Assembly: GCA_050273025.1 (NCBI GenBank) | Contig: CP158635.1 | Coordinates: forward strand, 12,710,001-12,774,000 | Reading direction: 5' to 3' | Length of the DNA: 64,000 nucleotides | Origin: Cenococcum geophilum | Lineage: Eukaryota | Notes under the pieces: model-generated | The model's input: only the letters and a program-made list of their open reading frames with translations | Databases searched by the model: none | Told to the model about the DNA's origin: nothing | Shown here: one piece after another, positions 1 to 51,017 of the stretch | Layout of the letters: each line of letters starts with the position of its first letter | Position numbering within the stretch: position 1 is the first letter of the stretch | Program-made: the position numbers and the translations under genes

Positions 1-1070
1 ATTTAGTATAATAACGGCCATCTTATTACTTATTAGGAGGTTCTTACAATAGTAATTAGCACTAGCCTTTAAGATAAGCCGTATTTATAGGTTTAAGATA
101 ATTTATAATAGGGTTATTATAGGCTAAGCCTAAAGCTATTTCTTTAGAGTTTAATAGAGGGCGATAAAAGGGTTCCGTACTTTAGATAGTATAGTAGTAA
201 GGTACTATAGAATAGCTATATCTAGCTAGGTATTTGGACGGGCCTATAGGTAAATATCTATAGTATAACTAGGGTTATAAAAGTATAGCTAGGCATACTA
301 CGGAGTAATATCAGTAGGAGGCTTTAGCGGGCTCTATAGATGGTAAAGCTTATTATATATTTAGAAGCAATTTAGGCTGCCCTAGGCTACGCTATGGTTA
401 GTAATAGTATAGTTTACGGATATAAAAGCTAATGCTGCATTATATAAGCGAAGCCGCTCCTTAAACTGCCTAGTAGAAGTAGTACTAGACTCTAAAAGAT
501 CGCGTAGATATTCTAGCAAAGGCTAGAATAGAGGGAGGGTTATATTATCGTGCTTATAGCAGGCTTTAAAGCGTAGATTACTAGGCTATAATATACTAAC
601 ACGTTTATTAATCCAATGTAGAGCGGTGTAGAAGTTATAGGTAACGTCTATAGGACTAAGATTTAGCTGCTCTATAATATGGCAGATAGTAGTAATAGGG
701 CCACAATCTAGCTGCTCGGCGATAGGGCGGACGGTAGTAGGTCGCGGCTAGATTAATATAGGCGGTCGCGGCTGGATTAATACGGGCGGTATAAGGGGAG
801 AAGCAGCGGCAGAAGCAGCGTCGGAAGTAGTAGTAGCTATATTTTAGGGTATAGGCCGTAAAAGGCCTGCTAAAGGTTATCGTCAGGACCGTTCCTTTCT
901 TTTCTCCTATATATAGAGTTAGAAAGACAGTAAATAAAAAAAGGATAAAAAGGATTAACCCTATAAGATTTACAGATCTTATACGGAGCTTTTTGGCAGT
1001 TATTTAGTATAAAGTTAGTAAAAGGGTAATACCCCTTATAGGTAGTACAGAATGTATAATTAGAAGGCAT
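1..1070 (-). mobile_element. Helitron RepHel N-terminal region, RIP-degraded, runs off the window's left edge
   Basis: Minus-strand translation gives 'YTALHWINKRV', 'FKACYKH', 'FKERLRLYNAALAFISV', '*IYNKLYHL' and 'P*YA*LYFYNP'. These are RIP-damaged versions of the Helitron CxxCxALHW / CCxxG / RSYNxAFAFTS / IHGxLYH / PxYAQLYxYD motifs. ATG at 1070; probable short intron ~911-960. Confidence 0.8.
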
Positions 1071-1383
1071 TTAGGCGATAGGTAGAGTAGTAACTGGGGT
1101 AAGGTAGGATTTAGGGATAGGGTTTTTTTAATAGTGAGGTAGTATGTCCCCCATTAGGTGACCAGACCAAATTTTAACTAATATATCTCTTAGGTTGGAT
1201 CCAAATTTAGTATAACGTAGATTTATAGATTATAGATATTAAAATAACAAGCTGAAAATCTTTAACGTGTAAGATATATTTGGTATAAAGATTAGCTATT
1301 ATATCACTATATATACTAAGTATTTTTTTAAAATATATACTAATGGATTAGTAAGGTATTAAAGAATATCTTTTTAGTAGGTA

Positions 1384-2725
1384 ACGTCTTAGCCACCCAA
1401 TTGACCTACCTGCTAATTACGATTTAAATTACCCCTTTTCTTATATATCTTACCTTTCCTATACCACAACTATAGATTCTACGGCTGCCGCACTGCTTAA
1501 ACTTAATTAAAAAGCTTGAATGGAAATTATAATTAAGCCTTTAGAAGCTAACCCTAACTAATCTGTTCGTAAGCTTGCTAAAACTTCCTACCTACTATAA
1601 TCGACTCTTAACTACTGTTAGAGAGGACGCCGATTATATAAAGAGGCCCATTAAGCCTAACAAAAACTTATAGTCTTTAAGGAGTATTTTATTGTTAAAT
1701 AGATTAATACTATAAAAAGCTAGGGGTGGCTACCCTAAATCTAATACCTTAAATCTATAGGCAAAGATATTCTTAAAGTAAAGAATTGTTCTATAGAGCT
1801 TGGCTAATACTAGTATAAGAACTTCCTTAAATGCTACCTAGAACTTAAAGCTTAATTTACTAAAGGCCTTAATTAAAAGCAAAAGGGTGCTAAAGACCCC
1901 AAAATTATTAAGGATTGGTTTAAGTTATATATAGCTATCCCTTAGCACGGTAGGGTCCTTGGAATTAGTGGTCCGTATAAGAATACTAAAATTAAGGCTA
2001 CGTATGTATCTATGTTTAAAAGCTTAATATAACTGTAATATATATATAATACCGCTCTATATAGAGGACGGGCGCTAGCTACCTTATATTACTTAACTTA
2101 ACTCTAAACATGAAGCTTATATATCAAAATACTAAGAAATTAAAAGCTTTGTATTCCTAAGTACGGGCATTAAATTTAGCGAGTTTAATTGGCTAGTTGT
2201 TATCGATAAGCCAAGGGCCCTAATTACCGTGCTAAGGGATAGTTACTAAGTATAGAGTCTTTAAGGGAGATTAATATAATATGGATAAGAAGGGAATTGC
2301 AATAGGAGTTGGTAATATAGTTAAGGTGTTAGTATTATAATTAGAGGCTAAAGTCTTTGCTATAGAGCCAGGTAATTATAAGTGGGTATTCTTAATTAAA
2401 TGCGTCTTAGGAAATCGATATTGGCTACCTTCCTATATTATCTTTAAAGGAAAGCAAATATAATAAGCTTAGATAACCTTACGCCTTAATCGCCAAATAG
2501 TTATCTAGGTAAGCGATTTAGAGTAAATAAATTCGGATATCGCTCTTAATTAGTTGCACTACTTTAACCTATATATAAAGCTATAACTCTAAGGAATCTA
2601 TTATATATTAATTCTTAATAGCTATAAGAGCTATATATTAATGCAATTTATTAAGTATTATAAAGCTTATAAGATCGTAGCCTTCTACCTCCCCCCTATT
2701 TAACGTATAGACTTTAGCCTCTTAA
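1384..2725 (+). mobile_element. Fot1/Pot2 (pogo-like Tc1/mariner) DNA transposon, RIP-degraded, 3' part lost at Gypsy A LTR
   Basis: TA followed by ACGT terminus at 1384. HTH segment 'SVRKLAKT', CENP-B-like 'YKNFLKCYLEL', DDE motifs 'YNMDKKGIAIG' (~2275), 'ILNSYKSY' (=LDGHESH, ~2611) and 'LPPYLTYRL*PLNV' (=LPPHSTHxLQPLDV, ~2690). Confidence 0.85.
1938..2239. mobile_element. MITE (302 bp) inserted in the Fot1-like transposase
   Basis: Perfect 15-bp TIR TCCCTTAGCACGGTA / TACCGTGCTAAGGGA, TA on both sides (1936-37, 2240-41); transposase homology resumes after it. Confidence 0.9.
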
Positions 2726-3154
2726 TGTAACAAAGCCTTATAGGAAATACTACGGTGGACTTATTAATAGGCTAGGTATATAAGTTAGGGAATAGTTAAT
2801 AATAATAATATAACTAGTAGAGTGGTTACCTAATAGATTAACTCTAATTATATTCTAAGATTTACTATAAAGAAGAAAACTATCTAGGTAGGAACTGTAG
2901 TCCTTTAAATATATAATACTGCGCCTAAGAAATATACTAAGTACGTTAATACGTTAATACGTTAGTATATTACGTTCCCATGTTCCTATATTTCTATATT
3001 CTAAACTTATAACGTACCTAGCTATATAACTTAACTACCTCTTATTTTATAGCTTAATTGGTTTTAGTGCCTCCTATACTATCTTAACTAACCCATTTAT
3101 ATCTCTTTTTAGTGGTTATACTACTATAATACTGCTAATATAAGGTCCGTAACA
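2726..3154 (-). repeat. 3' LTR of Gypsy A (429 bp)
   Basis: TG...CA ends; similar to the solo LTR at 15930 and partly to the G LTRs; PPT complement 'ccacccccctcctc' follows. Confidence 0.9.
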
Positions 3155-3262
3155 CCACCCCCCTCCTCTTTATCTTCGTCCTTAAAGATATCTCCTATCT
3201 CTAAGTTATCTATTAGAGGTATAATATTCCCGTTTTTAATTTAATAACCTTTATTATTTTTA

Positions 3263-3760
3263 ATGCCTCCTATTAGATCCTTTATATCTAATTATTATAA
3301 TTAGCTAGTAACGTTTATTTTTTCCCCTTAGTAAAGTTATACCGTCCTATTCTTATTATACGGAGAAGAAGTTAGTATATATTATAATCGTGGCTCTATC
3401 TAGTTGTTAACATTTTTCTTATACTAAGTATATATAAGCAAATATACAGTTATTCTATAACGTTTAATCTATCTTTAACGCTAAATATACGCGTCTTATA
3501 ATTCTATATAATTATTTTATTTCTTATCTAATTTATTTTAGGGTTTCGCGTATTAATAGCGACTAAAAAACTAAAGAGTAAGCTAGCTAAGGCTCTTGTT
3601 AAGGTTTAATATTATTTTAATAAAGCGTTTTAGGCTCTAAGGCTTAACTAGATACTTATACTTAGTTATCTTACTTAGCAAAAGTTTATAAAAAGGTAAC
3701 AACTTATACGCTAGTAGTAAATCCCTTAAATAATCTAGCTTATTTATTACTTTTAACTAA
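3263..3760 (+). pseudogene. Antisense accessory ORF of Gypsy A (Zn2Cys6-like + coiled coil), RIP-degraded; 3' end approximate
   Basis: ATG at 3263; six TAT codons at C-x2-C-x6-C-x13-C-x2-C-x8-C spacing; probable 1-nt frameshift near 3325; putative 55-nt intron 3487-3541; homologous to 49960-50483. Confidence 0.65.
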
Positions 3761-5670
3761 TCCTTTTATTTTTAGTTTCTCCTTAATATTACCTAACCTA
3801 TTCTCTTTTAATACTCCTATACCTTTCCTATAGCTTTCTTTAAATCCTATAATAGTTTCTAGGTAGTCTTATTATAGCCTATCTACTTTACTTTGTACTA
3901 TATTTTATTATTAATGTCCTTATAGTTAATAATCTTTAAAACCTACTATTTGTCTTCCTCTTATCCTCTATATATATCTACTTTATAAACTAGTAGCTCT
4001 ATATCTCTATACACTAGCTTTAGTATCGCAATATACTATATAGGGTATATCTTTATCTTTATCAGTAAGTTAAGTCTATATATAACTTTTAAAATCTTAG
4101 CTATAATTTTAAACAGTCCTAGTCTAATATAGTCTAACTTCTTACTTAGTTGTTAACTTATAAAATTTTTATATAATAGCTACACTTTATCCCCCTCCTT
4201 TAGATCTGGTCCTTTAGATCTCCTAGCGTTATAGTACTTTTTTATCTTTTTTATACTAATTTTGTTATAGAATAGAGGTCTTTATAAAGATTTATTAGAG
4301 TTTCCATACTCTACTTTACTATTTTACTTATTTTCTTTACTTATTGTATTAATAATAATATTCTAGGCTTATATCTATAATTTGTCTAAAATAGTAATAT
4401 CTTTATACCTTCCTATAGTGTTGCGTTATATATAAACTATATAACTAGTAGTAATAACACCTAATTATTCTATGCATAATTAATATAATATCTTAGATAC
4501 TATTCTAGTATCTAATTTAATCTTTCTATTTATTTATCTGTCTGTAGATAATATATAGTAAAAGTTACTACTTAAACTTCTTATTCTGCTAGGAATATCT
4601 CTTAAAATATTATTATAAATCTTAGATCCCTATCTAATATAATCTTACTTAGTACTCTATATCTTATAAACACTTCCTTAATATAGATTCTAGCTATATC
4701 TTTTATTCAGATTTCTTCTATATATGCTATAAAGTAGCTCTATTTAGTTAGTTTTTCTACTATTACTAAAATTACGTTATATTCCTATTCGGTAATAGGA
4801 TTTTTTTTTAACTTTAGCAACTTTATAATAAAGTCCTATAATATCGTTTCCTATAGACGTTCTAGTACTTTAACTAGCTATAGCTTTCTATATAGTTTAT
4901 ACCTCGTTAATTTATTCCTTTAGCAATCTAAATATTCCCTTAAAACTTTTCTTACTAAGCCCTAAATTCTGTTAATAATATATTCTTTTTAAAGTCTTAA
5001 CACTAAGCCTATAGCTCCGTTGTGTCCTTATATTATTCCCTTATAGAAATTTTTAATAAACTCTTTTATAATATCCTTAGGCACGTATATAGTTTCTTAG
5101 TTCTTATACTACTCTATATTTAAATCTTTAGATTATACTTCTTAGATCCTTTTAGTCTAATCGCTTTCCAGTAACTTGTGTTCCTAAGTTATTATAATTT
5201 TAGAGTAATTATATCTAATCAATCCACCCTTATCTTTGCGTAATATTGCCCCTAATAGCTTCTTATTATTTTGTAGTTTAGCTTTCCTACTTAACGCGTC
5301 TACTTTTATATTTTTAGTTCCCTTAATATATTAAATCTTAAAATAGTATTCCGTAAGCATTTCTACCTATTTAACCTATCTTTAATTAAGTTCTTTTATT
5401 ATTAGAAACCCTATTAAGTTCTTATAATTTATTTTAACTATAAATAGTTTCTTTATGCCTTATAAGAATGCCCTTTATTCCTTAAGTGAATTATACCTAA
5501 ATAACTCCTTATTATAAATGTTATAGTTTAACTCTAGTAGTATTATCTTCTAACTATAGTATATTACTGGATACTATATATTTTTATGCTTTTATAGTAG
5601 GCATACTCCTAGTATAAAGTCTAATGCATCCGTTTCTATAACCGTTTCTAGTCCTAGTTAATAGATCTTA

Positions 5671-5956
5671 TGATAACTCTACAGTAGTAGAGTAAAGTTT
5701 GCGATACTAGCGCGTCCGTAGGCTTGTTACGGCAGTAGTGGTTCCTAAGAAGGTCAAAAGGTAAGGAGGTAGGAGCATCACAGGTGACTTATAGGCGCCT
5801 CGCAGGCGCCTTATAGGCGAGTCCTAAAAGGCGGGGAGATGGATTACGGGGTTTTCTTAAATAGAGTTTTCTCCCTATATGTATATAAGGAGTAGTCCGC
5901 GTGGGCCCAATAGGGATCCGAATCGGACGTTAAGCAATAAATTACTATTATTATTA
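5671..5956 (+). mobile_element. 5'-truncated LINE (3' terminal 286 bp) inserted in Gypsy A pol
   Basis: Matches the 3' end of LINE 7767-13327; (TTA)n tail; 13-bp TSD TTAATAGATCTTA at 5658-5670 and 5957-5969. Confidence 0.9.
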
Positions 5957-7766
5957 TTAATAGATCTTAAGGATTAGCTCCTAGGTAAACAACTCTTTAA
6001 GTTTTTTAATTAACTTCTTTTATTCTTCCCCCTATACCTATAGTTTCTCTTTCTTTATAAGTCTTATAAATAGTTTAATATTCTTTAACTACTATACTAT
6101 AAACCATCTATAGTAGTTGCAAACTCCTAAAAATAATTTTAACTGCGTTATATTCTCTAGTTCTTACCAACTTACTATAGCTTTAATTTTCTTTAGGTCT
6201 ATACTAATATAACCTAGTTTAATAATAAATTTAACAAAATTGGTCTTCCTAGTAAAGAACTTATATTTTTTAATTGCTACTAGTATCTATTCTTCTTATA
6301 GTCTCTTTAAGACCTATTTAATAGATTCTCAGTGTTCTTCTTTACTTATTAAATAGATAATAATATCGTTAAAGTATGCTATAATAAACTTATTAAGGTA
6401 TTCTCCTAATACGCTATTAATTTGCTTTTAAAATATTACTAGTACGTTTATAAGTCTAAACTATATAACTAATAGTTTGTATAGTCCTTCCTTTAACCTA
6501 AAGACTGCCTTCTATTTGTCGCCTTCTTTAATTCTAATCTAATGGTATACCCATCTTAGATCTATCTTTGTAATGATTTACGCATTACTTATTCTATCTT
6601 AAATTTTGCTAATTAAGGGTAAAGGATATCTATCCTCCCTAGTAATACTGTTTAACTATTTATAGTTAATACATAGCCTAAGCTTTCTATTTTTCTTAGG
6701 TATAAATAGTACTAGATATTCTGCTAATAACTGCAATAGTCTAATATATCCCTTTTATAGGTTTTCTTAAATAAACTCTTTAAGTACTCTTAACTCTTCT
6801 TTAGTTAGCTTATAGATTAAAAAGAACTTTAGACTTATTCCTAGTTTTAATTTTAATTTATAGTTCTATACTATATACTCTAATAGCTTTTTACTTTTTA
6901 GGCTCTATAGCTTCTTGCTATACTTATAGTATCTTTTTAGTATATAACTTAAGCCCTACTTAATCTTTTTATATATCGCTCCGACTTAGTACTATACTAT
7001 TTTAGTTTATTATTATATCTTACGTTATTAAGTATCTTTAATATTAACCTAACCTATAACCCAATCAATCTTTAGATTATATTTCTATAACTAAGGCATT
7101 CCTAGTACTGCCCTACCCCGTCCTAATAGTAAGATATTAAAAGATATCTTAATTTATCTCCCTTTAATAGTTATTTAAATAGGTCTTATTTTAAGATTAA
7201 TAATGCCTCCTTAATAGGCTATTAGATCTTTTAAAATTATAACTAGTAAATATAGGTACTCTTTTTATCTATAAAGTAGCCCTATTTATTTTACTATTAC
7301 TAATAAGATATAATTTCTAGTTACTCTATTATCTATTAGTGCCTTAAATTATTAATCTTACTATTTAACTTATAGATTTAGGTGTTGTCCTTAAATTCCT
7401 TTAAGGGTTTAAGCTCCCTCTAGTTTTATAGGCCTCTACTTTTTCTAACTATTAGCTACTTAATCCTGTTATACTTAGCTTATTTTTTAACTAATGCCTT
7501 ATTTACTTTTTATCTTTAATATACTATAAATATATATTCTCTAGGCATTTTCACTACTATTATCTATCTAGGTATTCTTCTATAAGGAATCTTTTTAGTT
7601 AAAGTATTAAGTCTCCTAACTCCTAAACTTTTATTAAATACTATTTATATATATACCTAATATTTCTATATTTTTACTCCTCTAGCGCCTAATATATTCT
7701 TATAGGGTACTTCCTTTTTTTAATTCTTATATATATCGCATATATTATCTATATATATAATCTATA

Positions 7767-10700
7767 ACAGAAAAACAATATTCTTAAAAAAGGAGCTCTT
7801 GCTACACCTGGCCCAAAAAGACTAAAACCAACTAAAAGAACCCTAAAAAACACCTAGAGAATCCCCCTAAGATGCATGCATCGCAGGGGAGGCACACGTC
7901 AAACGACGGTGGCTCGCACTCGCGCGCGACCGCTAGAACTACGCCTAGCAATGGCCCTCCACAACAAAGACAGGCGAATACTACACTATAAAGCGGAAAT
8001 ACCTCTATTAAGAAGGCATCTAATAAAATATAAAGCCTATTAGACGCGTCTAGTATCTAAAATTATAGGGGAGTAACTATTAGCTATAACGAACTAATGT
8101 AGCTAGTAAAATGGCTCCGCCAGTCTAGCGAACCTTAGGCGCCCCTTTAGTAAACCCTTAATTAAATCCTCTAATGGCTAAGCAAAATTAAAAATAAGTA
8201 TAACCCCCCCTTACTAGTAAACCGCACCTAGGCCGCTATAGCTATACTTTTATAGCATAAGGAACCTACCCCCTTTAAGTTAATAACTAGGTATATAATT
8301 ATAATATAACCAAATATAGAATAAGTAGAGGGGCTTAGGGGGTAATTAGAAATAGAAGTCCTTATAAAAATATATAAAGAGGTCTACAATACTGTTATAG
8401 TCTAATACCTTAAGAGCAGAGACATTAGAGTTACCTTAAAGGACTAATAGGTAAAGAAATAAGCTATAAGAATAGGGAATAGGCTAGGAGAACGTATTAG
8501 TATAAAAGTACTTTATAAGGATTACCTAGTTAAAGTCCTAGCGGTTTCTATAAGCCTTAGGGTAGAAAAAGGACGCCAGGTAGATAATATAGTAATTATA
8601 TAGAAGATAGTAAGATAAACGGAACGCCTTATACTAGGACTTAAAATCACCTAAATCTAATGGCTTTAATAGGAAAATATAAACTAAGTATATAATAAGA
8701 ATAATAAGAGAATATAAGGGTTATTGGAGACTTGCTAGGGAGACGCCGGACGAATATATAGCTCCCTTATTGTTAGTATATATATACCAGAAATACAAAA
8801 ACTCCTTATCTAAAAAGGAATAATTATAAATGGCCTTATATACAATATAAGGCTCTATAACTATAGACTACGCCTAGAATAATACTATTGCTGTATATAA
8901 TAGGGACACACCTAATTTATATGCGCAGTATAGGTATACTGCGGCTACTATGCAGGCCCCTATAATATAAGATATTGCTTAAATTAAGACTAAATAAAAT
9001 GCGTAAACTGCCACTAAAGCATATATAAGGCGTAGGAGAGAGAAGACTATATTAAATATAGGAGACGGAAGGCAAGGGCTTAATAGCTATAGGAATAACT
9101 GCATACTAGGTTATATAAATAGAAATAATAGGTAATAAGCTAGGGGGACGCAGGCGCCTTCCTAGCGTTTTCTACCTTTAATACTAGAGGGCTAGGCTAG
9201 CTATCCTAAGCCTTAACGGGCTAAAAGCGACGCCGCGTAATATTACTAGATTAATTAGGGATATAAGGGTTATAGGGGATATAAGGGAGAGGATACCCCA
9301 TAGGAAGACCTCTATAAACAGCGATAGTAGGCTTAAGACTAGGATAATTAAGAATTAGACTTAATACGGTAAATATAATATTTATAGCTAACCTATAAAG
9401 GGTATATAGCCAACTAGTAAGAATAGGGGAAGAACTGGTAATAATAATAAATTTAGATATAGAAGCGCTAATAGGAATATAAAATATGGGAATAGAAAGC
9501 TCTATATAAAATAAGTAGTAACTAGGGTGTAGATATAAGAGATAAAAGCTCTAAATATTCTAGAGAAAGTAGAAATAGAAGAAGCGAGGAACGAAGGAGA
9601 GTTAAAGAACCCTCGCTAGGGGTTTGCCACCTATCTATTATATAGTATAACTACAGCAATACAAACTACCGCCTTATAAGGCCCCTACTAGACAGTCTAG
9701 ACCTAAAGAAATACTATATCCTTACTATATAAGAACCGTATTATAATACCTTTATATAATTAATATATTACCCCTAAGGATTCTAGCTCCTATATAAACT
9801 AAAAGCAGCTATATATGTATGCTTTATAATTAGCAAGGCTATTAGCCTATCCTTATAGTTATAGTAGGCAGTTAACCTAAATATTATAGTTATAACAATC
9901 TAAATATATAGGGGATTGGTATAAATTATTAATATATATAACCCTAGGGTTAAAGGGGTCCTATAAATAGAGAATATTATATTAGTAATAAGCTTACTAG
10001 AAACCGAAGGTATAAAGTCTATTCTACTAGGAAATATAAACCTCTACTACCCGCGGTAGGGGGGTATCTATATTACTGTAGATTAACAGTTAAAGTGCCT
10101 ACTAAGAGCTATAAATATCTAGGGCCTTAAGCTAGCTACCCCCCTAGGAGCAATTATATAGCAATAAGGCACCGCTAGAAGTATAATTAACCTTATATTT
10201 ATAGACGAAGGCCTATACTAGAGACTTAAAAGGTGTAACCCTAAAGAAGAATAGGCACTTACCCTAGACTATATCCCTATTTAGATATAGCTAGACCTAA
10301 ATACTAAAGCGCAACTAAATAAAAAAAGATACGTAATAAGGAAGCTTAAGATAAACAGTTTCCTTAATATAGTTAAATAACAACTCTAAGACCTAGAAAA
10401 AATCCACCTAATACTAAATAAGCAAGGCTTATTAGCTACCCCTAAGGAAATTAACCGAAGACTAGAAAGGATCTAGGCAGCGATTAAAAATAGGCTAGAA
10501 GAGCACTACCTAATCTTAAAACCGGGCCCCTATGTGTAATATATATAGTCTATATAATATACAGTTCTAGTTACTAGCTAATAATAAGCAAGAAGGAAAT
10601 ATATAAGTAGCTATAACCCTAAAGATAAGAGATAATATAAAGATATAAGAAACCAGCTAAAGAATACCCTAAAAAAAGAAGTAAGGAATAACTAAAGACG

Positions 10701-13327
10701 GTTTATAAATAAGTATACTTTTAACCCGAGCCTCCCCTATAATAAAGGCCTTTAGGCTATAGTAAAATAGGTAAAGAAAAAGGTAGGGCGCTTAGTAGAA
10801 GATTTATACCTACTACCCTTATAAAGAGTAGGAGAATTATAGGCTATAAATAATAATGATAAGAAGGCAAAGATCTTTATAAAAAGGTTCTTCCCCTAAC
10901 CAGCTCTAGCAGACCTTAGTAATATTATAGGTAAAACACTGGTGACTTACCTATGGGTTAACAGTGACATAATAATAGAGGAAATGGCTAGAACTATTAG
11001 CCGCCTTTTAAATAATATAGTACTAAGACTAGATGGGATTCTAAATAAGGCCCTAAAAACTTATAGGCCACTTATAGCACTTTAGCTTATAGATATAGCT
11101 AGAGTATGTTTTACTATAGGCTACTACCCGCAACTTAGAAGATCTATAATAACGGTTGTCCTATAAAAAGAAGGTAAAGCAGATTACTTAATCCTAGGAA
11201 GCTACTGCCCTATTGCCTTAGAAAATACCCTTAGCAAGATCTTAGAAAGGGTAATAGCGGAACATATAGCAGATACGGTAGAGGAACACGCCCTACTACT
11301 ATAAAGCTAAATAGGGGCAAGAAAAAACCGCTTAACACTATTAGCACTTACGCTACTCGCTACTACCATTAAATCTATATAGGCGATGTGAAAGGACTTT
11401 ATAGTATTAATGCTTAGCCTAGATATTAGTAGTGCCTATAACAATATACCCTATAAGCGTCTCCTATATATCCTTAGGGTAAAGGGCTTCTTAGAATAGA
11501 TTATATAATTTGTCTAAGGGTTTATAGGCTAGAAAGAAATATTACTAGTCTTTAGCGGATACTAGAGCCCCCCTATTACAGTTATAATAGGAATACTATA
11601 AAAATTACCCCTCTTGCCTATTCTCTTCCTTTTCTTTATAAGTAACCTACTTAACTCCTTTAAGGAAGGGGCAACCTAGGGAATAGGCTTCGTTAACGAT
11701 ATAAACCTAATTATATATAGGCCAACAGCTATAAAGAATTATAGAATACTAGAGAAAGCCTATAACACTTATATAAAATAGGTAAAACGTTATAGAGTCT
11801 AATTCTTATTAGAGAAATACTAGCTAATCTATTTTATAAGAAAACGTAACTAATCTGTAGATCTTTAGTATATAATTCGCATTTAAGGCTTTAGGGGTTA
11901 ACTAGTTTAGGGCTTAAGGGTATTAGGAGTATAGGTAGATAGTAAGCTCTAGTAAAGCGTATATATGGCGCAAGCGGCCTATAAAGGCTAAGTATAGTTT
12001 ATTACTTTATCTAGGATTATTAATTCTATATAGGGTCCATACTTTTAGAGGTCACGCCTACTATATATAATAGTTGTCTGGCTAACCATAATATATAGAT
12101 CCAGTATTTGGGCCATTAAAGAAACTAAAAAGGGCCCCCCTAAATTACTCCTTAAACCACTTTAAAAGGTCTAGATAGCCTACTTCTAGAGTATTATAGG
12201 CGGGTACAAGCAAACGGCTATAGTACTGCTTAAGAAGGAATCTAATATTCCCCCCCTATAGTTATATATTAAAGCCGTAGTAATATAAAGGACGCAAAAT
12301 AAACGCAACTCTAATGTTATAAAGTATATTAAAACACGCCTAAGTAAACTATAGAGGGACCTTAAAGTGCCCCGTAGGAGAATAAACTAATAACCCTAAA
12401 GTAGGGAAGAGATATTAGAGAAATAGGTAAAGAAAGTAGAAGAAGAATAGTGCCGCTTTAGGGCCTAGGCCTATATAGAGGAGAAAAGGAGACGCGTAAG
12501 AGGTTAGTAAAGATAATAGCAAGATAGAGAAAGGAGCTAAAGTAGAATATATAAGAATGCTAAGAAACTATCTACCGCAATATAATACTAGTTGGACTAA
12601 TACTAGAGAGGTAAATAGGAGTTAAAGGTATAGAGGCTAACTTAGGTAAGACAAACCTAAGCTATAGTATAGTTAACGCTATAGGGGGTAAATACCTAAG
12701 GGCTCTAAGAAGGCCTAATAAAGGCAGAAAATATAATATTAACACTCTTAAGAACAGGAATAATAGGACTAAAAGATTAGCTTTACTAGGTGGGAGTTTT
12801 AGTAGGTAGCCTAAGATGCAAATATAGCTAGCTAAGACAGACACTAAAACACGTAATACTGCTATGCCCCCTACGCACTAATTAAGAAATAATACTCTTA
12901 GTAACTAGTATAAAGAACTATAATATACTGCTCTTAATATAAAAAGGCCTTAAGGCGGTTACCTAGTAGCTTATTAGTTAAAATATACTAAATTAGTTCT
13001 GGGTTGCAAGGGAAATAGTAATAAAAGGTAAGGGGGCGAGCAGTAGGTGCCCCCTAGTAACTCTATAGTAGTAGAGTAATAGTTTATAATACTAGCGCGT
13101 CCGTAGGCTTGTTACGGCAGTAGTAGTTCCTAAAGAGGTTAAACAGTAAGGTAGTAGAGCACTATAGGCGACTTATAGGCGCTAAGTAGGCGAGTCCTAA
13201 AAGGCGGGGAGATGGATCATGGGGTTTTCTCATTTTTCTTAAATAGAGTTTTCTCCCTATATATAACTAAGGAGTAGTCTATATAGGCCTAATAGAGATC
13301 CGAATCGGACGTTAAGCAATGAATTAT
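7767..13327 (+). mobile_element. Full-length Tad1-like LINE (ORF1 ~7950-9620; ORF2 APE-RT ~9630-13060), RIP-degraded
   Basis: 15-bp TSD TATATATAATCTATA (7752-7766 / 13328-13342). ORF1 has triple CCHC remnants (~8885-9025). APE 'II*YNYSN...ILTI*EP'. RT 'GSYCPIALENTLSKILE', 'MLSLDISSAYN', 'GFVND'. Confidence 0.92.
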
Positions 13328-14740
13328 TATATATAATCTATACTAATATATAATATACTAGGTGCTTTAGGTTAACTCTTAACTTATCCTTATCTTTAAG
13401 TTTAAACCTCTATCGCACTAATCTAAAGGTTACTATTTTATTTGCAGGTACTAAAATACGCCGTTTACTTCTCTAGTCCTTTAATTACTCTTTTAAATCT
13501 TTTAATATCATAATTAAGGCTCCCTTAATATAATTTATGCCTTTTTTCGTAATTAGTTAGTCTTAAATAACTTATTTATCTAACTATATATAAAAATCTT
13601 CCTACTTATTATTATATCGTTGCCTATACTACTTTTAGTATAGCTCCCTAAGTATATACGGTCTGCCCGTAAGGAAGTATCTTCTTATTACTATATTATA
13701 ATAGCCTTTTATATATCTTTTCTTAAATCTAATTAGGATTCTAGGATCCTCTTTTTCTTCTAGTTTAGTTAGCTACTTAGCTCTTAATATACCTGCCTTA
13801 AGCCTATTAGTAACCCTTTATATAAGCAATCTTTTCCCTAAATAGTCCGTTGCTTTTAGTATCTTTTTTTACTATATAAAGATTCTTTTTTTAAATTCCT
13901 TATTACTTTTATCTAGCTTCTTTCTTACTAATAGGCTAAAGCCTTTATACTTCTTGACCGGGATATTAACTTTTTAATCCTACTGCTAAATCTTACTCGT
14001 AATTTCTTTAATAGTCCTTATCCTAATATTAGAGTCTTAGTTTAATAATTTTCTTAATTTTAAGCTTACTTTTTTTCTAAGCTACGCTCCTACATTAGTC
14101 TAATTAAGCTTTAGTAGTATTTTTATCTCGTCTTAAAAGTCTTAAATCTCGCTTGTCTTACTTTAAAAGTCTTATACCTATAAGAAATTCTATCCTATAC
14201 TTATTTATATACTTCTAAACTAAACTACAACTCTACTCTATTAGTTATTGTCTATTATAGGTCCTTAAGCTTATTTTATCCCATCTTAGGAATTTTAAGC
14301 GTCTCTTATCTCTTCCTAAAAATCTTAAGCCCATAGCTTTTTGCCTTTATTAAGTGCCAAAATAGCTTATTATCCTACTTCTCTTATATCTTATAAAGCG
14401 ATACATTAGGAAAACGGGAAAGTGGTAGGGGCTAGCCCGGGGCTAGCACTGGGTCATTTTAGCTAGATCCGCTAATCTGCTTATATATACTTCTTTACGC
14501 TAGCCCGGGGCCACTTTAGCCACTTTAGTTACTTTAGCCACTTTATATCTAATAGTTATAATATTTATAATATTTCCTGTAACTATAATATTTCTTATAG
14601 CCATAATATTTATAAAATTAACATTTATAAAATTAAATTAATAGTAGTTAAAGGGGGGAGCTTTTTGTAGAGGCTCTAAATTGTTAATTAGCTAGTCTAG
14701 ATAATCCGCTACCTATATACTGATTTCCTAACTAGGTCTA

Positions 14741-15075
14741 ATGCCTATCTACCTACCTATGTACCTGCCTATATACTTACCTGCGTATCTACATACCTAT
14801 CTATTTACCTATATACCTATAAATCTACCTATATACTTACCTATCTACCTACCTACGTACCTATATACCTATCTACCTGTCTATATACCTACGTACTATT
14901 TACCTGCCTATATACCTACGTACCTACCTATATATACCTACCTACGTACCTACCTATATACCTACCTGCGTACCTACCTACGTACCTACCTACGTACCTA
15001 CCTATATACCTACCTGCGTATCTACCTACCTATCTACCTACTTATCTACCTACTTATCTACCTATCTATTTATAT
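14741..15075. repeat. Degenerate (TACC/TATC/TATA)n tetranucleotide microsatellite
   Basis: Direct reading: ctacctacgtacctacctatatacctac... over ~330 bp; flanked by a ~90-bp direct repeat (~14655-14745 and ~15145-15240). Confidence 0.95.
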
Positions 15076-15414
15076 CTGTTATAGGAGCTCTATATCTTTT
15101 TAGGGAGACTACTACTTAGGCTTTAAGCGATTAATTAAGGAGTAGGGGGGAACCTTACGTAGAGGCTCCAAATTGTCAATTAGTGGTGTTCCCGATAATC
15201 TGCTAATTATATACTGATTTCCTAACTAGGCCTAGTGCCTGCCTATATTAGTGTCTAATTTAATTTAGAAGAGGAGTTGGTTTAAATAGTGGTTATCTAA
15301 TGTACCTTCCTAGGAGGCCTTAATCCGATTTAATTTGGTAATAGGCTGTATCGAGACTCTAGTTTAATTCAATTAATTAATTAATTAATTTGTTTATGGT
15401 ATTCGCTAGCTAGT

Positions 15415-15515
15415 CGTTATTATCTGGTTTTGGCGACGGTTATCTAGTTTTGGCGATGGTTATCTAGTTCTAGCGACAGTTGTCTAGTTTTAGCAACGGT
15501 TATCTAGTTCTAACT
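15415..15515. repeat. 21-bp minisatellite, ~5 units
   Basis: Units like GGTTATCTAGTTTTGGCGAC(T). Confidence 0.85.
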
Positions 15516-15804
15516 ATAGTCCTCTACTAGCTATCGTTTTGGCGCCTCCCTAGGTAGGGGGATATAAGGAAAGAAGGGTAAAAAATAAGGTAGTATTTAG
15601 GTGTATAAGAGGTATATAAAGGCATATATAGGCTATTAGAAATATAGTAGGGACCTAATAATACTTAGGACAATTTAGACAATTAGGAAAATTAAAGTCC
15701 TACTAGAAGCCTACTAGGAGGCCTTTAGGATTTTAATACCCTAATAGCAATAAACACAATAATAGTAATAATATTTATTTTATAGCTATAAGCTAATATA
15801 ATGC

Positions 15805-15929
15805 TAGCGTATAGCTTTAGAGCTTAGCTAAAATAGTAGAAAGCTAGCGTAGAGCTTTAGGGGGTTAGCTAATATGGCGGAAAGCTAGCGTATAGCCCTA
15901 GGGGGTTAGCTAATATGGCGGAGAGCTAG
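15805..15929. repeat. ~41-bp minisatellite, ~3 units
   Basis: Units like GGGGGTTAGCTAATATGGCGGAAAGCTAGCGTAGAGCTTTA; interrupted by the solo LTR at 15930. Confidence 0.8.
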
Positions 15930-16568
15930 TATAATAAAGCCTTATAGAAAATACTATAGTAAACTTATTAATGGGCTAGGTATATAGGTATAGAATAGTT
16001 AATAACGTAAATATAACTAGTGGAGTAGATACCTAATAGATTAACTTTAATTATATTCTAAGATTTACTGTAAAAAAAAAAGAAACTATCTATAGAGACC
16101 GTGCGTCCTTAAATATATAACTCCTCCCTATAGTAAAGGGTTTAGTACGTTAGTACATCACGTTCCTACGTTCTTACGTTCTTATATTTCGAACTTATAA
16201 CGTAACTAGCTACGTAACTCAGCTACCTTTTATCCTATAGCTTGATTGGTTCTAGCGCCTCCTATACTATCTTAACTAACCCGTTTATATCCATTCTTAG
16301 TAGTCGTACTACTGCCGATATAAGGTCCGTAATTGTGACGGTACTAATGCGCGTCACCTGCCACATTCAACCAATCAGGATTTTCCATGCCCGGCATGGA
16401 AAATCGCTATTAGCTCACTTACCACTAGCGCCCTAGCGGCCCTCGCGACATGTCTACCTACTACCCCTAAACGATTCTCCTTCTTCTTCTCCTTAGCTTA
16501 GTATCTTTACTAGATAGCAATCCACAAGCTTTAGTTCAGAGGCATTTATGCGAGCCGTTACAGTAATA
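15930..16568 (-). mobile_element. Solo LTR of Gypsy A family (contains a nested solo LTR)
   Basis: Homologous to 2726-3154; 5-bp TSD GCTAG at 15925-29 and 16569-73. Confidence 0.88.
16334..16562 (+). mobile_element. Solo LTR (229 bp) related to Gypsy D LTRs
   Basis: TG...CA ends, 5-bp TSD GTAAT (16329-33 / 16563-67); shares blocks with the D LTR (TGTxACGG, TTAGCTTAGTATCTTT, AGAGGCATTT). Confidence 0.9.
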
Positions 16569-23300: not shown

Positions 23301-26300
23301 GACCCTTATACGTTTAAGCTAGGTAAAGATCTTTACTAAACTTAATATCCGCTAAGCTTTCTACCAAATTAGGATAGACCCTATATCTAAAGATTTAACA
23401 ACGTTCCGTACCCACTATAGTTCCTATAAATATAAAGTTCTTCCTTTTAGACTAATAAACGGACTGGCTATGTACTAAAGGTATATAAATAACGTTCTTT
23501 TTAATTACCTCAATAAATTCTGCACGGCATACCTAGATAATATTCTCATATACTTAAATAACAAACTTAAGTATTAAGTTTATATTAAGAAGGTCCTAGA
23601 GAGACTACGGAATATGGGCTTATAAGTCAATATTAAGAAATGCGAGTTTAGGGTAAAATGTATAAAATACCTCGGGTTTATTATAACTATAGAAGGAATT
23701 AAGGTTAACCCTAAGAAGGTAGAGGCAATTTATAACTGGAAGCCCCCTTATACAGTAAAAGGAATCTAATCCTTCCTTAGTTTTTATAATTTCTACTACT
23801 GGTTTATCCGTGACTACGGAATTGTGGTAAAACCTCTTATATAACTAACTAGGAAGGATATACCTTTTATCTTTAATAATAGCTATATAGAGGCCTTTAA
23901 AGAGGTAAAGGATCGGCTTATCTCTTCCCTAATCCTTTATTACTATAACCCAGACCTTAAATTAATGCTAGAAACAAACGCCTCTAATAGGGTCATAGCG
24001 GGAATCCTATTACAGTTATATCCAGACGGTAAATAGTACCCTATAGCTTTCTTCTTAAAGACAATAGACCCGGCTAAGTATAACTATAAAGTATATAATA
24101 AAGAAATGCTAGCTATTATTTAATTACTCTTCTAATAGCGCGCAGAGCTTAAAGGTATAAACTCCTGGATTAAGATATATATAGATTATAAAGCCCTAGA
24201 GTACTTTATAACTATAAAGCAGCTTATAGGGCAATAAGCCTAGTGGGCCGAAATACTCTCCTAATTCTTCTTTATAATTATATATTATTCTAGTAAGTAA
24301 AACTCTAAGGCTAATACCCTAACCTAAAGAGAATAAGATATAGAACCCTAGAATAAGCTAAAGACCTAATACCGGACGCGCGCCCTCTTCTATCCAGAAC
24401 AGCTTAACCCGCGGATCCTTAAGGAGCTAGACTCCTAGTAAAACGAGCTAGCACTAATGGAGGAGTCCTTAGATAAGCCAATAGGGCTAGTTAACCGCCT
24501 CCTAACTATAAACCGCACGGCTAACGCCCTAAGAGCCCTCCGCGAACAAGCTGTAAAAGGAGACCCCGATTTTAAGACGGAGGAAGGATTGCTCCTATAC
24601 CAGGAGCGGCTTATAGTCCCTAACGTTGATAATCTATAGACCAAACTAATCTGTGAAGCTTATTACCAAGTCTCTATAGCACACCCTAGCAAGAACAAAA
24701 CCCGTAAAATCATTAACTGCCGCTACTACTGGCTAAGAATAGTTGTGGATATTAATTGATATATACGGAACTGCGAAGACTACTAGAGAGCTATAATTTT
24801 ACGGGATAAGACCCTAGGACTACTTAAGCCACTCCTAATACTAAAGCGCCCTTAGTAGTATATTTTTATAGACTTCCATAAACTACCTAGGAACTATAAC
24901 GGATATAATATAGTTATAGTTATAGTTAACCGCTTTAGTAAACGCCCGTTCTTAATTCTATATCACAAAAACATCAATGCTAAAGAGGTAGCCCGGCTAT
25001 ATATCCATTACGTCTACTAAATCTATAGACCACCAGATACTATTATATCCGATTATAGGCCATAGTTTATATCGGCCTTCTGGAATAAGTTTACCCGGAT
25101 CCTAGGCATTAAGCTAAAGCTTTCTACGGCTTATTACCCCCAGACAGACGGTTAGACAGAGATCGTAAATTAGTACCTGGACCAGAGGCTTAGGCCCTTT
25201 ATTAACTATTTCTAGGACAACTAGTCTGAACTACTACCCTTAATAGACTACGCGCAAGTAACCCTACCCTATAACTCTATAGGGTTTGCCCCAATTTAGC
25301 TAAAAATAGGATACTTACCCCGTATAAGCTTTAACTGGAAAAGGCTAGAAGAACCCTAGACTATATAAGAGAAGCTATCCTATGCTAAGGCCCAACAGTA
25401 CGCTAAACGATTAAAGGAGGCCTAGATGGTAGCCCGCAAGAACCTAGAAAGAGCTTAAAGGTTAATAAAACAGCAGGCGAACAAATACCGTTAAGAGCCC
25501 AATTTTGCCCCTGGCGATATGGTCTGGGTTATAATAAGGAATTAGAGGACCGAACGACCTAGCCGTAAGCTAAACTACTAGATAGCAGGACCGTATAAGG
25601 TTCTTAAGAAGATAGGTAACTTATATAAGATAAAGCTCCCAGACTTAATTAGGGTTTACCCTATCTTCTTACCAAATAAGTTACGGAAAGCTATAAACAA
25701 CCTATTACCTGGACAAAAGAATGAGCCTCCCCTACTAGTTTAAGTAAACGGTAACAATAAATGGGAGGTTAATGAAATGCTGGCCTGTAAGATAGTATGG
25801 GGAGCGCTAAAATACCGTGTCTAATAGAAGGGCTACAATCCTAACCCAACCTGGTACCCTATGTGGAACTTTATAGGCTGCCCCCAGAAGCTTAAAGAAT
25901 TCTATAACCAATACCCTAATGCGCCTGGACCCCTAAAGTACCTAGACGAATAGATAGAATGCTGGCATAATAAAGACGATAAGTTACCGGAAGAATATAG
26001 GGATAAAAACGCCCTAAAGCCCTAATACAGCTGTCTACCAAATTCTGCCATATTCTACCATTTTCTGCTAGTACTGTAAAATTTTAGATGTCTAGGAACT
26101 TCAACCGCCGGTTAAAGTTATCTAATTAGTTAGATCCGTGCCAAGACTTTTAGCGGCTACTCTTTCTAGCCTAGTGCTTCTACTTAGCCTATAATCGCCC
26201 TTTATACTTAGTCAGGACGGACTTATATCCCCTTTATCTCCTTATCTTATATTTTTATAATCCTACGTTTATAAGCCTAGTACTACCCTATTTTTTCTAA

Positions 26301-26552
26301 CTAAGCCTAAGGGCAGGCTTTCTTTTAAAGAGGGGGGTAATGTAACGGCGCTATCGTACGTTACCTGCTAAAATTCTACCATATTCTACCGACCTGCAAT
26401 TGGCCCGCCTAAAGCTAGCGCCTTGGCGGCTTACCCTATATATTTGTTTACATCGGTCCTAGCGACCCCTTTTCCTTCTCTTTAGCTTAGTATCTTTGTA
26501 ATACAGCATTCGTTCAAGCTTCGGTTTAGAGGCATTTGTTTAAGCCATGACA
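20362..26552 (+). mobile_element. Ty3/Gypsy chromovirus D, full length (6191 bp), inserted in the 5' LTR of C
   Basis: 212-bp LTRs 20362-20573 and 26341-26552; TSD AATTA; PPT AAAGAGGGGGG. gag 20804-21964 with 'CFNC' knuckle. pol to 26025 with 'AYLDNIL', 'LETNASN', 'YPQTDG*TE' and chromodomain 'KGYNPNPTWYP'. Confidence 0.95.
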
Positions 26553-49400: not shown

Positions 49401-51017
49401 GAAAAAGTACTACGATATTAAGAGATCTAAGGGACTAGATCTTAAGGAGGGAGATAAAGTATAGCTACTATATAAAAATTTTAAGAGTTAACAACTAAGT
49501 AAGAAGTTAGACTATGTTAGACTAGGACCTTTTAAAATTATATAGAGAATTTCACTAGTTATATTTAAGTTGAACCTATTAGCTAGAATAAAGATCTACC
49601 CTATATAGTATATTGCGATGCTAGAGCTAGTATATAGGAATGTTAAGCTACTAGTTTACGAAGCAGATACATATAGAGGATAAAAGGAAGACAAATAGTA
49701 AGTTTTAAAGATTATTAGTTATAAGGATATAGATAATAAAATATAGTATAAAGTAAAGTAGATAAGCTATAATAAGACTACCTAGGAGCTACTAGAGAAC
49801 CTAAAGAACGCTATAGGAAAGGTATAGGAGTATTAAAAGAGAAAAGGTTAGGCAATATTAATAAAGAAGAATCGCCAAAGAACGAGTTATTTAACGGGGA
49901 TTTAGGAAGAGCAACTACCAAACTACTTAGAGTTATTTTTTTCTCTATTAGAAGAAAATCCGTTTTTTTATTACTAAGTTCCTATAAACCTTATTCTATA
50001 AGTTTCCACTTCTTAGAACGAACCTTCTTGCGAACTCTCTTAAGACGAATTAACTAAGCGGACGCAGTAAGATAAGAATTAAGAGCCCGTTGTTAAGCAT
50101 TAACCGCCTCTTTCTTAGCGTTACATAAATAATGAAGTTCCGCTAAGGCAACGGACAGTTTATTATTAAGCTTTATAGTAACAAATTAAATATAAGACCC
50201 TATAATAAATTACTTAGGGAACTTAGAGACTATTAAGAGTCATAGGACGCGTATACTTAGCGTTAGAAATTAAGCAAATATCGCAAGACAATTAAATATT
50301 TGCTTTAGTGCACTCTAAATAAAAAGAGGGTTATTAAGATAAAGGACTCGCCAATATAATATAGACTAACCCCTTTTTCACGCAACGAGAATATAGAGAT
50401 AGTATTATTTCACTAAGCGATAGTATAGAAGAAACTGTACGCGTATAATAAAGGGTCGAAGAAGAAGAAGGTGCTTTAGGTATTATAAGCAACAATATTA
50501 ACCAAATTAATTAAACGGATATCACACCTTTAGTAAATAACTTGGAGATACTAGGTATCTTTAAAGACGAAGATAAAGAGGAGGGAAATAGTGTTACGGA
50601 CGCTTTAAGTACAATATTATAACTACTTAGAGAAGAGTTAGAAGAAGCTAGTTAGTTAATATAAGTACGGTCTAGGATAGAACCCGTAAAACTATATGAC
50701 GAGGAATAGTAAGCAAGGTCACGTGATGTAATCTGTGTAATCTGGGTAATTTACAAGATCTGTAATAGAGCGAATAGAGCAGACAGAGCAGATAGAGTAA
50801 CGACTTTCTTAGGAGTACGGTTGTGTATTTAAGGACCCTCAGTCCTTACCTAGATAGTTCCTTCCTTATAGTAATTCTTAGAATACAATTGGAGTTAATC
50901 TATTAGGCAACCACTCTACTAGTTGTTATTACGTTGTTAACTACTATTTTTGCATTTCCTATACACCTAGCCCATTAATAGAACCCACCGTAGTTCCTGC
51001 TATAAGGTTCCGTTACA
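43444..51017 (+). mobile_element. Ty3/Gypsy chromovirus G (7574 bp, A-related), inserted in the C2 LTR
   Basis: 426-bp LTRs 43444-43869 and 50592-51017; TSD GCAGA. gag ATG 43916, protease 'LVDSGVIRNHI' (~47065), RT 'YLND', RNase H 'VETDVLDYALG', integrase 'YYPQIDG*MER', chromodomain ~49690-49830. Confidence 0.95.
49960..50483 (-). pseudogene. Antisense accessory ORF of Gypsy G (Zn2Cys6-like + coiled coil), RIP-degraded; 3' end approximate
   Basis: Reads IPKAPSSSSTL...YSRCVKKGLVYIILASPLS**PSFYLECTKANI*LSCD; 55-nt intron 50254-50200; exon 2 'LSVALAEL...LIRLKRVRKKVRSKKWKLIE*GL*EL'. Confidence 0.7.

Follow-up and report, generated by a model that had tools for sequence, protein, structure and literature searches.

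The locus raises the question of whether a stretch of DNA lying antisense to a decayed Ty3/Gypsy element of Cenococcum geophilum is a gene, and if it is, what the gene does. The window (the whole 64-kb stretch that was analysed) is a low-GC repeat island (23-41%) as far as ~54000, within a genome of 178 Mb in 7 contigs. It includes Gypsy A on the minus strand and Gypsy G on the plus strand, both with the candidate gene. We conclude that this is almost certainly a real, intron-containing accessory gene of one ascomycete chromoviral Ty3/Gypsy lineage, antisense between the chromodomain and the polypurine tract (PPT). The relevant features of the window are these, with reference to an unmutated relative (L086) and two related proteins (P0163 and P0165) that are described below:

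2726..3154, minus strand: 3' LTR of Gypsy A, matching the LTR of L086
3155..3175, minus strand: PPT of Gypsy A, at the same position in L086
3219..3276, plus strand: candidate upstream 58-nt intron, GT..AG, holding the ATG at 3263, suggested by one protein, P0163
3263..3486, plus strand: exon 1, disrupted by RIP and by an insertion of 1 nt at 3324, from alignment to relatives and a DNA profile
3348..3458, plus strand: six-cysteine positions, C-x2-C-x6-C-x13-C-x2-C-x8-C, all TAT here and Cys in L086, P0163 and P0165
3487..3541, plus strand: 55-nt phase-1 intron, donor mutated to AT; GT in L086, intron missing from P0163 and P0165
3542..3833, plus strand: exon 2, coiled coil and acidic Pro/Phe-rich tail, stop TAG at 3831-3833, from alignment and DNA profile
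3694..7408, minus strand: RIP-mutated pol of Gypsy A with PR, RT, RH, IN and a chromodomain at ~3800-3950, from tblastn with the L086 pol and Pfam on L086
49811..50483, minus strand: homologue of the antisense gene in Gypsy G, with exon 1 at 50483-50255 and the intron at 50254-50200, from DNA profile and alignment

Element A is a chromoviral Ty3/Gypsy element by its LTRs, PPT, gag and a pol in the order PR-RT-RH-IN-chromodomain, as judged from Pfam on L086 and the pol match, in which the two pols are 49-57% identical (tblastn). RIP has been strong in the region, with a TpA/ApT ratio of 1.67 and 26% GC, as against 0.5 and 52-56% in an intact relative. Nested insertions interrupt the element in pol (5670-5960) and gag (7770-13330), and it has short tandem repeats at 14694-15119 and 15400-15526. 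The antisense promoter is likely to lie within the 3' LTR at 2726..3154. The U3 regions carry subfamily-variable tandem arrays of 8-9 nt, many with ACGT cores (window 2940-3010 and 50720-50800; 3' LTRs L003-L119), which end ~25 nt upstream of a TATTTAAG box (TATA box) at ~position 230. In the 3' LTR of L101, and in this element only, a 9-nt U3 unit is expanded to ~20 copies. Apart from A and G, no part of the window matches the DNA profile of the antisense gene with an E below 0.73, which agrees with the earlier view that Gypsy C and D do without the gene. That their chromodomains abut the PPT is true only of the element ending at ~39650 and not of the one ending at ~26340, where ~300 nt (26025-26325) separate the end of pol from the PPT and similarity to the antisense gene is absent.

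For alignment, 119 loci were taken, of which 101 had an exon-1 match; the 18 dropped include the window copy of A, which was analysed apart. Taking out L086 and 2 duplicates left 98 copies that were clustered. The DNA profile of the relatives matches exon 1 of the window copy at 3263-3485 (E=2.5e-48) and exon 2 at 3542-3697 (E=1.4e-30), so the landmarks are not there by chance. Much of what the first-pass annotation had read from the letters is indeed there: the ATG at 3263, the six positions spaced x2-x6-x13-x2-x8 as in G and all TAT (codons at 3348, 3357, 3378, 3420, 3429 and 3456), and the NAK followed by a split T|GG codon. The intron it had placed at 3487-3541 keeps its 55-nt length and terminal AG, but the donor reads AT, in a TpG context, rather than GT; among the 98 aligned copies, the donor is AT in 92, GT in 5 and a gap in 1. 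The gene had been ended at 3760, short of the homologous TAG stop at 3831-3833, which is TAG or TAA in 90/98 copies, and the exon 2 tail extends over the chromodomain's end, coded on the opposite strand. The 1-nt insertion at 3324 puts the ATG at 3263 out of frame with the six Cys positions, translation from it hits a stop at codon 14, and exon 2 has lost 1 nt before 3639 and another 90 nt before 3698; with these three changes, the window copy is more damaged than its sister copies. A second in-frame start at 3339 is now ATA. The window copy is dead, inactivated by RIP, and adds no independent lineage.

The intact state of the gene is seen in relatives. L086 is a metagenome locus, a circularly permuted and unmutated chromovirus with an open gag of 1001 aa and an open pol of 1258+ aa in which Pfam finds PR, RT, RH, IN and chromodomain. 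Its antisense gene begins with an ATG at 7270, has Cys codons at the six positions and ends with a stop after PFP; the 55-nt intron runs from a GT donor at 7493 to an AG and spans the overlapping contig ends. The gag (3703-6708, minus strand) is unusually long, with ~650 aa past the zinc knuckle that are without a Pfam match and finish in a His/Cys-rich segment. The N-terminal 720 aa of this gag match G but not A, which has its short tandem repeats in this stretch (window 13820-15950). Exon 1 of L086 (7270-7491) has a weak match to Pfam DUF3716 (E=0.18, 12.2 bits, cut-off 22). P0163 and P0165, which are known as protein sequence only, have the six Cys and then read E-W-S-R-V across the predicted junction into the coiled coil, with no intron. 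They probably derive from spliced RNA, since the genomic RNA of the element is the other strand and cannot lose an antisense intron; by the same reasoning, the intron would never be lost in retrotransposition. The intact relatives encode a protein of ~200 aa with a six-Cys cluster, a long helix and an acidic tail. With the exon 1 profile, 315 protein clusters are found at E<=0.001, a count inflated by RIP, and the 150 listed are mostly RIP-mutated metagenome ORFs. The six-Cys pattern occurs in 114 of the 168 proteins analysed, with a C3-C4 spacing of 13 in 114/114, and the exon-end pattern in 80 of the 168, where the next residue is Y in 56, C in 22 (GT kept) and W in 2.

The start of the protein may vary. 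P0163 runs from the PPT region straight into codon 5, and the missing part is a 58-nt stretch, positions 7226-7283 of L086, which runs from GT to AG and has a CTGAT branch-like site overlapping the ATG. The GT of this candidate upstream intron is kept in 37/38 A copies and 24/26 G copies. If the intron is spliced, the protein would start at the ATG just before the first Cys (3339 in the window). P0165 retains the first ATG. Going by the one protein P0163, the gene may have two starts, of which the ATG at 3263 is one.

The first-pass annotation had called the copy in A an independent diverged copy of the one in G, a description that does not fit the pol genes, which are nearly identical. In transversion differences, A and G are 2-6% apart in pol and 17% apart in the antisense exons. 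Judged by sequence, A and G are best regarded as sister subfamilies, not independent lineages, and because their pol is nearly identical, the intron that they share reflects simple common descent. DNA searches with A and with G each gave ~3200 candidates, of which the best 40 were taken and 30 analysed. The antisense gene is carried by 30/30 A and 30/30 G loci, all chosen by similarity to the gene region. Among the A loci, 27/30 have an exon 1 of 223 nt and 28/30 an intron of 55 nt, the intron length found in 30/30 G loci.

The substitutions indicate that the antisense gene is under purifying selection in its own frame, though RIP masks positive selection in these copies. A and G were compared by transversions only, which RIP does not produce. 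Third positions carry transversions at 53/195 sites (27%), first plus second positions at 48/390 (p=1.4e-5). Exon 2 allows the frames of the two strands to be separated, and there the most variable position is the third of the antisense frame, rather than that of pol (72/123 vs 48/123 columns, p=0.003). The subfamilies differ in length by multiples of 3, with modal lengths of 223/226/229 for exon 1 and 368-425 for exon 2. The six positions are TGY or TAY in 98/98 aligned copies, a figure favoured by the picking of these copies by exon-1 similarity; in the same copies, picked in the same way, the intron is 55 nt in 90/98. The expectation that the exons would be better conserved than the intron or the neighbouring DNA was not borne out: purine/pyrimidine differences between A and G number 101/585 in the exons, 7/55 in the intron (p=0.46) and 10/112 in the 112 nt before the ATG. 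We consider that comparison misleading; both the short intron and the DNA next to the PPT are under constraint of their own. The earlier view of a lineage-wide gene, rather than a chance capture, stands on the codon periodicity, the 3n length differences, the intact copy and the intron-less products.

The antisense gene is ~5x more divergent than pol. Third-position differences between A and G number 43/753 for pol, taken from single copies, against 53/195 for the antisense gene, taken from family majorities (p=2e-15). Across 11 groups (68 loci), distances are 1-5% in integrase-chromodomain and 7-21% in the antisense gene, where alignment error in the indel-rich coil raises them, and the two sets of distances are weakly correlated (rho 0.23, p=0.09). 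By sliding counts, L086 is near A in exon 1 and far from A in the first half of exon 2. L061 combines an A-like exon 1 (7 vs 46 differences) with a G-like tail (13 vs 5; p=6e-6). Subfamilies may therefore swap modules of the antisense gene, presumably by template switching.

The protein has some likeness to the fungal zinc cluster. In L086, P0163 and P0165, the six Cys form two C-x2-C-xn-C halves. The nearest Atlas cluster (0.91) is a 204-aa ascomycete 'Zn(2)-C6 fungal-type domain-containing protein', an automatic name that we take as a lead. On a profile of host Zn2Cys6 domains, P0165 scores 19.6 bits, and 0/200 Cys-preserving shuffles score as high, while 5/200 do for L086 and 14/200 for P0163. 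Foldseek with the first model gives a weak list (best E=0.37) of mostly Hap1, Put3, Gal4, Ppr1 and Leu3. The Pfam Zn_clus (PF00172) cut-off of 21 bits is reached neither by L086 exon 1 (14.3) nor by P0163 (8.1), and among 36 relatives, 1/36 matches PF00172 at E=0.073. The C3-C4 spacer is 13 here and 5-6 in 21/21 host domains. The C2-C3 loop of host domains mostly has 3-5 K/R and that of the antisense gene is much less basic, being AEKKLV in the A clade, with a Lys present, and AKEGLV (KEG) in the G clade, with that Lys absent. A profile-profile match to the host domains is weak (probability 6.5%, 15 columns, in the second half of the domain). We regard the Zn2Cys6 likeness as real but partial and do not assign the protein to PF00172. 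Both structure models have a long helix past the junction with pLDDT >90, and the Cys region is uncertain. Modelling supports a homodimer, which may form through the coiled coil: the antiparallel P0165 model scores 0.51 against 0.01 for the best control, with pLDDT >=82 and contacts that agree by at least 81% between runs. The mark used was reached by 21/30 solved homodimers and 0/23 monomers (17/29 and 0/30 for eukaryotes). The last 48 aa have 7-9 D/E and 0-2 K/R, and the tail is rich in Phe, Leu and Pro.

The antisense layout is already known from the Boty element of the grey mould, whose brtn gene reportedly has two exons and one intron. L086, A and G, fungal chromoviruses too, likewise have an antisense ORF placed after pol and before the 3' LTR. 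In the accounts available, brtn is an additional antisense gene of Boty-like (BcGypsy1) elements in Botrytis cinerea and Sclerotinia (PMC8365987, PMC4227169 and PMC7264820, citing Zhao et al. 2011, PMID 21802103). Compared by layout as those accounts give it, both are extra antisense genes between pol and the 3' LTR of an ascomycete chromodomain Gypsy. The passages cited give brtn neither domain nor function (PMC8365987, PMC4227169, PMC7264820), whereas the antisense gene here has a six-Cys cluster, a coiled coil, an acidic tail, a possible second intron and many divergent mosaic variants per genome. Neither the BRTN name nor its sequence occurs in our match lists or in the readable supplements of the citing papers, and our literature search found no zinc-cluster-like domain in such an antisense gene. 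Plants have antisense ORFs in Grande (gene23), RIRE2, Retand and PvRetro13, and retroviruses such as HTLV have antisense genes as well (PMC7264820). As that paper's passages describe them, these also lie between pol and the 3' LTR with their own promoter and a proposed regulatory role, and some are nuclear; unlike the gene here, they belong to other hosts and lineages, with no evident sequence link to it and no zinc cluster described there (PMC7264820). The Zn(II)2Cys6 factors (PF00172; Gal4, Hap1, Put3) resemble the antisense product in having six Cys that start C-x2-C-x6-C, then a helix, which dimerises in those factors and would do so here, and an acidic tail. They are unlike it in that the protein here has a C3-C4 spacing of 13, a weakly basic loop, a Pfam score below cut-off, ~200 aa, an antiparallel model and a transposon as its source.

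As for function, our tentative first choice, and a quite possible one, is that the element encodes a regulator which works in the nucleus on the element's LTR. The antisense gene would be transcribed from the 3' LTR and its RNA spliced. The protein would bind zinc, dimerise through the coiled coil and, once in the nucleus, target the LTR of its own element; the most likely effect would be a rise in transcription brought about by the acidic tail. Several observations count against this. The likeness to Zn2Cys6 falls short in the Pfam score, the C3-C4 spacer, the loop, the profile-profile match and, for L086 and P0163, the comparison with shuffles. Different protein clades are not matched one-to-one by different U3 arrays, 4 RNA runs aligned to G contain no spliced read, and the dimer model is antiparallel, unlike Gal4-type dimers, which are parallel.

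It is a lesser possibility, and on balance an unlikely one, that the same gene acts by protein contacts, either suppressing host silencing or tethering the integration complex or the particle. In that case, the Cys cluster would be an interaction module, and the variability would reflect conflict with the host. The weak DNA-recognition loop and the non-canonical Cys spacing would suit such a role, as would an antiparallel dimer that holds the two clusters far apart and a fast mosaic evolution against a near-invariant pol; however, the order of cluster, coil and acidic tail is typical of fungal activators.

We think it improbable that the gene, while real, is a negative regulator that acts by protein or by antisense RNA overlapping the 3' end of pol, as a copy-number control. 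Its tail does overlap the end of the chromodomain. In RNA run X3, over G 49655-50060, which takes in the 3' end of the gene, the first mates are all on the plus strand and none on the minus, at depth up to 10, as would be expected of antisense RNA provided that the library is stranded; dsRNA roles of such antisense transcripts are among the topics discussed in PMC7264820. However, just 44 reads were aligned, 25 of them <90% alike, selection on codons and cysteines shows that the protein matters, and an acidic tail suits activation.

A further reading, largely refuted and very improbable, has pol carrying a long extra C terminus on the sense strand, with the antisense frame as its by-product. 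In L086, the pol frame (2-3775, then 7544-7050, both minus strand) is open through the antisense gene, the intron and the PPT into the LTR, ~290 codons beyond the chromodomain, which ~1 in 1000 shuffles match, and the 112 nt before the ATG have a slight pol-frame periodicity (13/38 vs 12/74, p=0.053). Against this, exon 2 has its periodicity in the antisense frame, the intron is flat in the pol frame (8/19, 7/18, 8/18), intron-less products exist, and openness does not clearly set the pol frame above the other sense frames in the RIP families. The antisense gene and a pol tail might exist side by side, yet such a tail leaves the gene unexplained. We give just as little credence to a host zinc-cluster gene fragment captured once as functionless cargo, which would suit the distant Zn2Cys6 likeness and the overall exon conservation no better than the intron's, since frame, splice sites and six Cys are kept despite 27% third-position transversions, and the best-scored 150 matches to P0163 in the genome are at <=59% identity, with no close host gene among them (30 were examined as element copies).

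Carried further, the regulator reading becomes more doubtful. It would make the gene a miniature, zinc-cluster-derived regulator that serves as an exchangeable hypervariable cassette. Old variants would be shuffled on a near-invariant pol by template switching, giving subfamily-specific specificity for LTRs or host factors; splicing of the 58-nt intron would switch between long and short forms, and pol would read through in some elements.

A near-invariant pol beside a fast, mosaic accessory gene points to conflict or specificity. Annotation can label the products of such genes as hypothetical proteins or as 'Zn2Cys6' proteins of the host. According to PMC7264820, the extra genes that LTR elements carry in antisense are without established function, and this lineage offers a fungal test case: an intact natural element with a defined intron, a recognisable Cys cluster and a candidate target in its own LTR.
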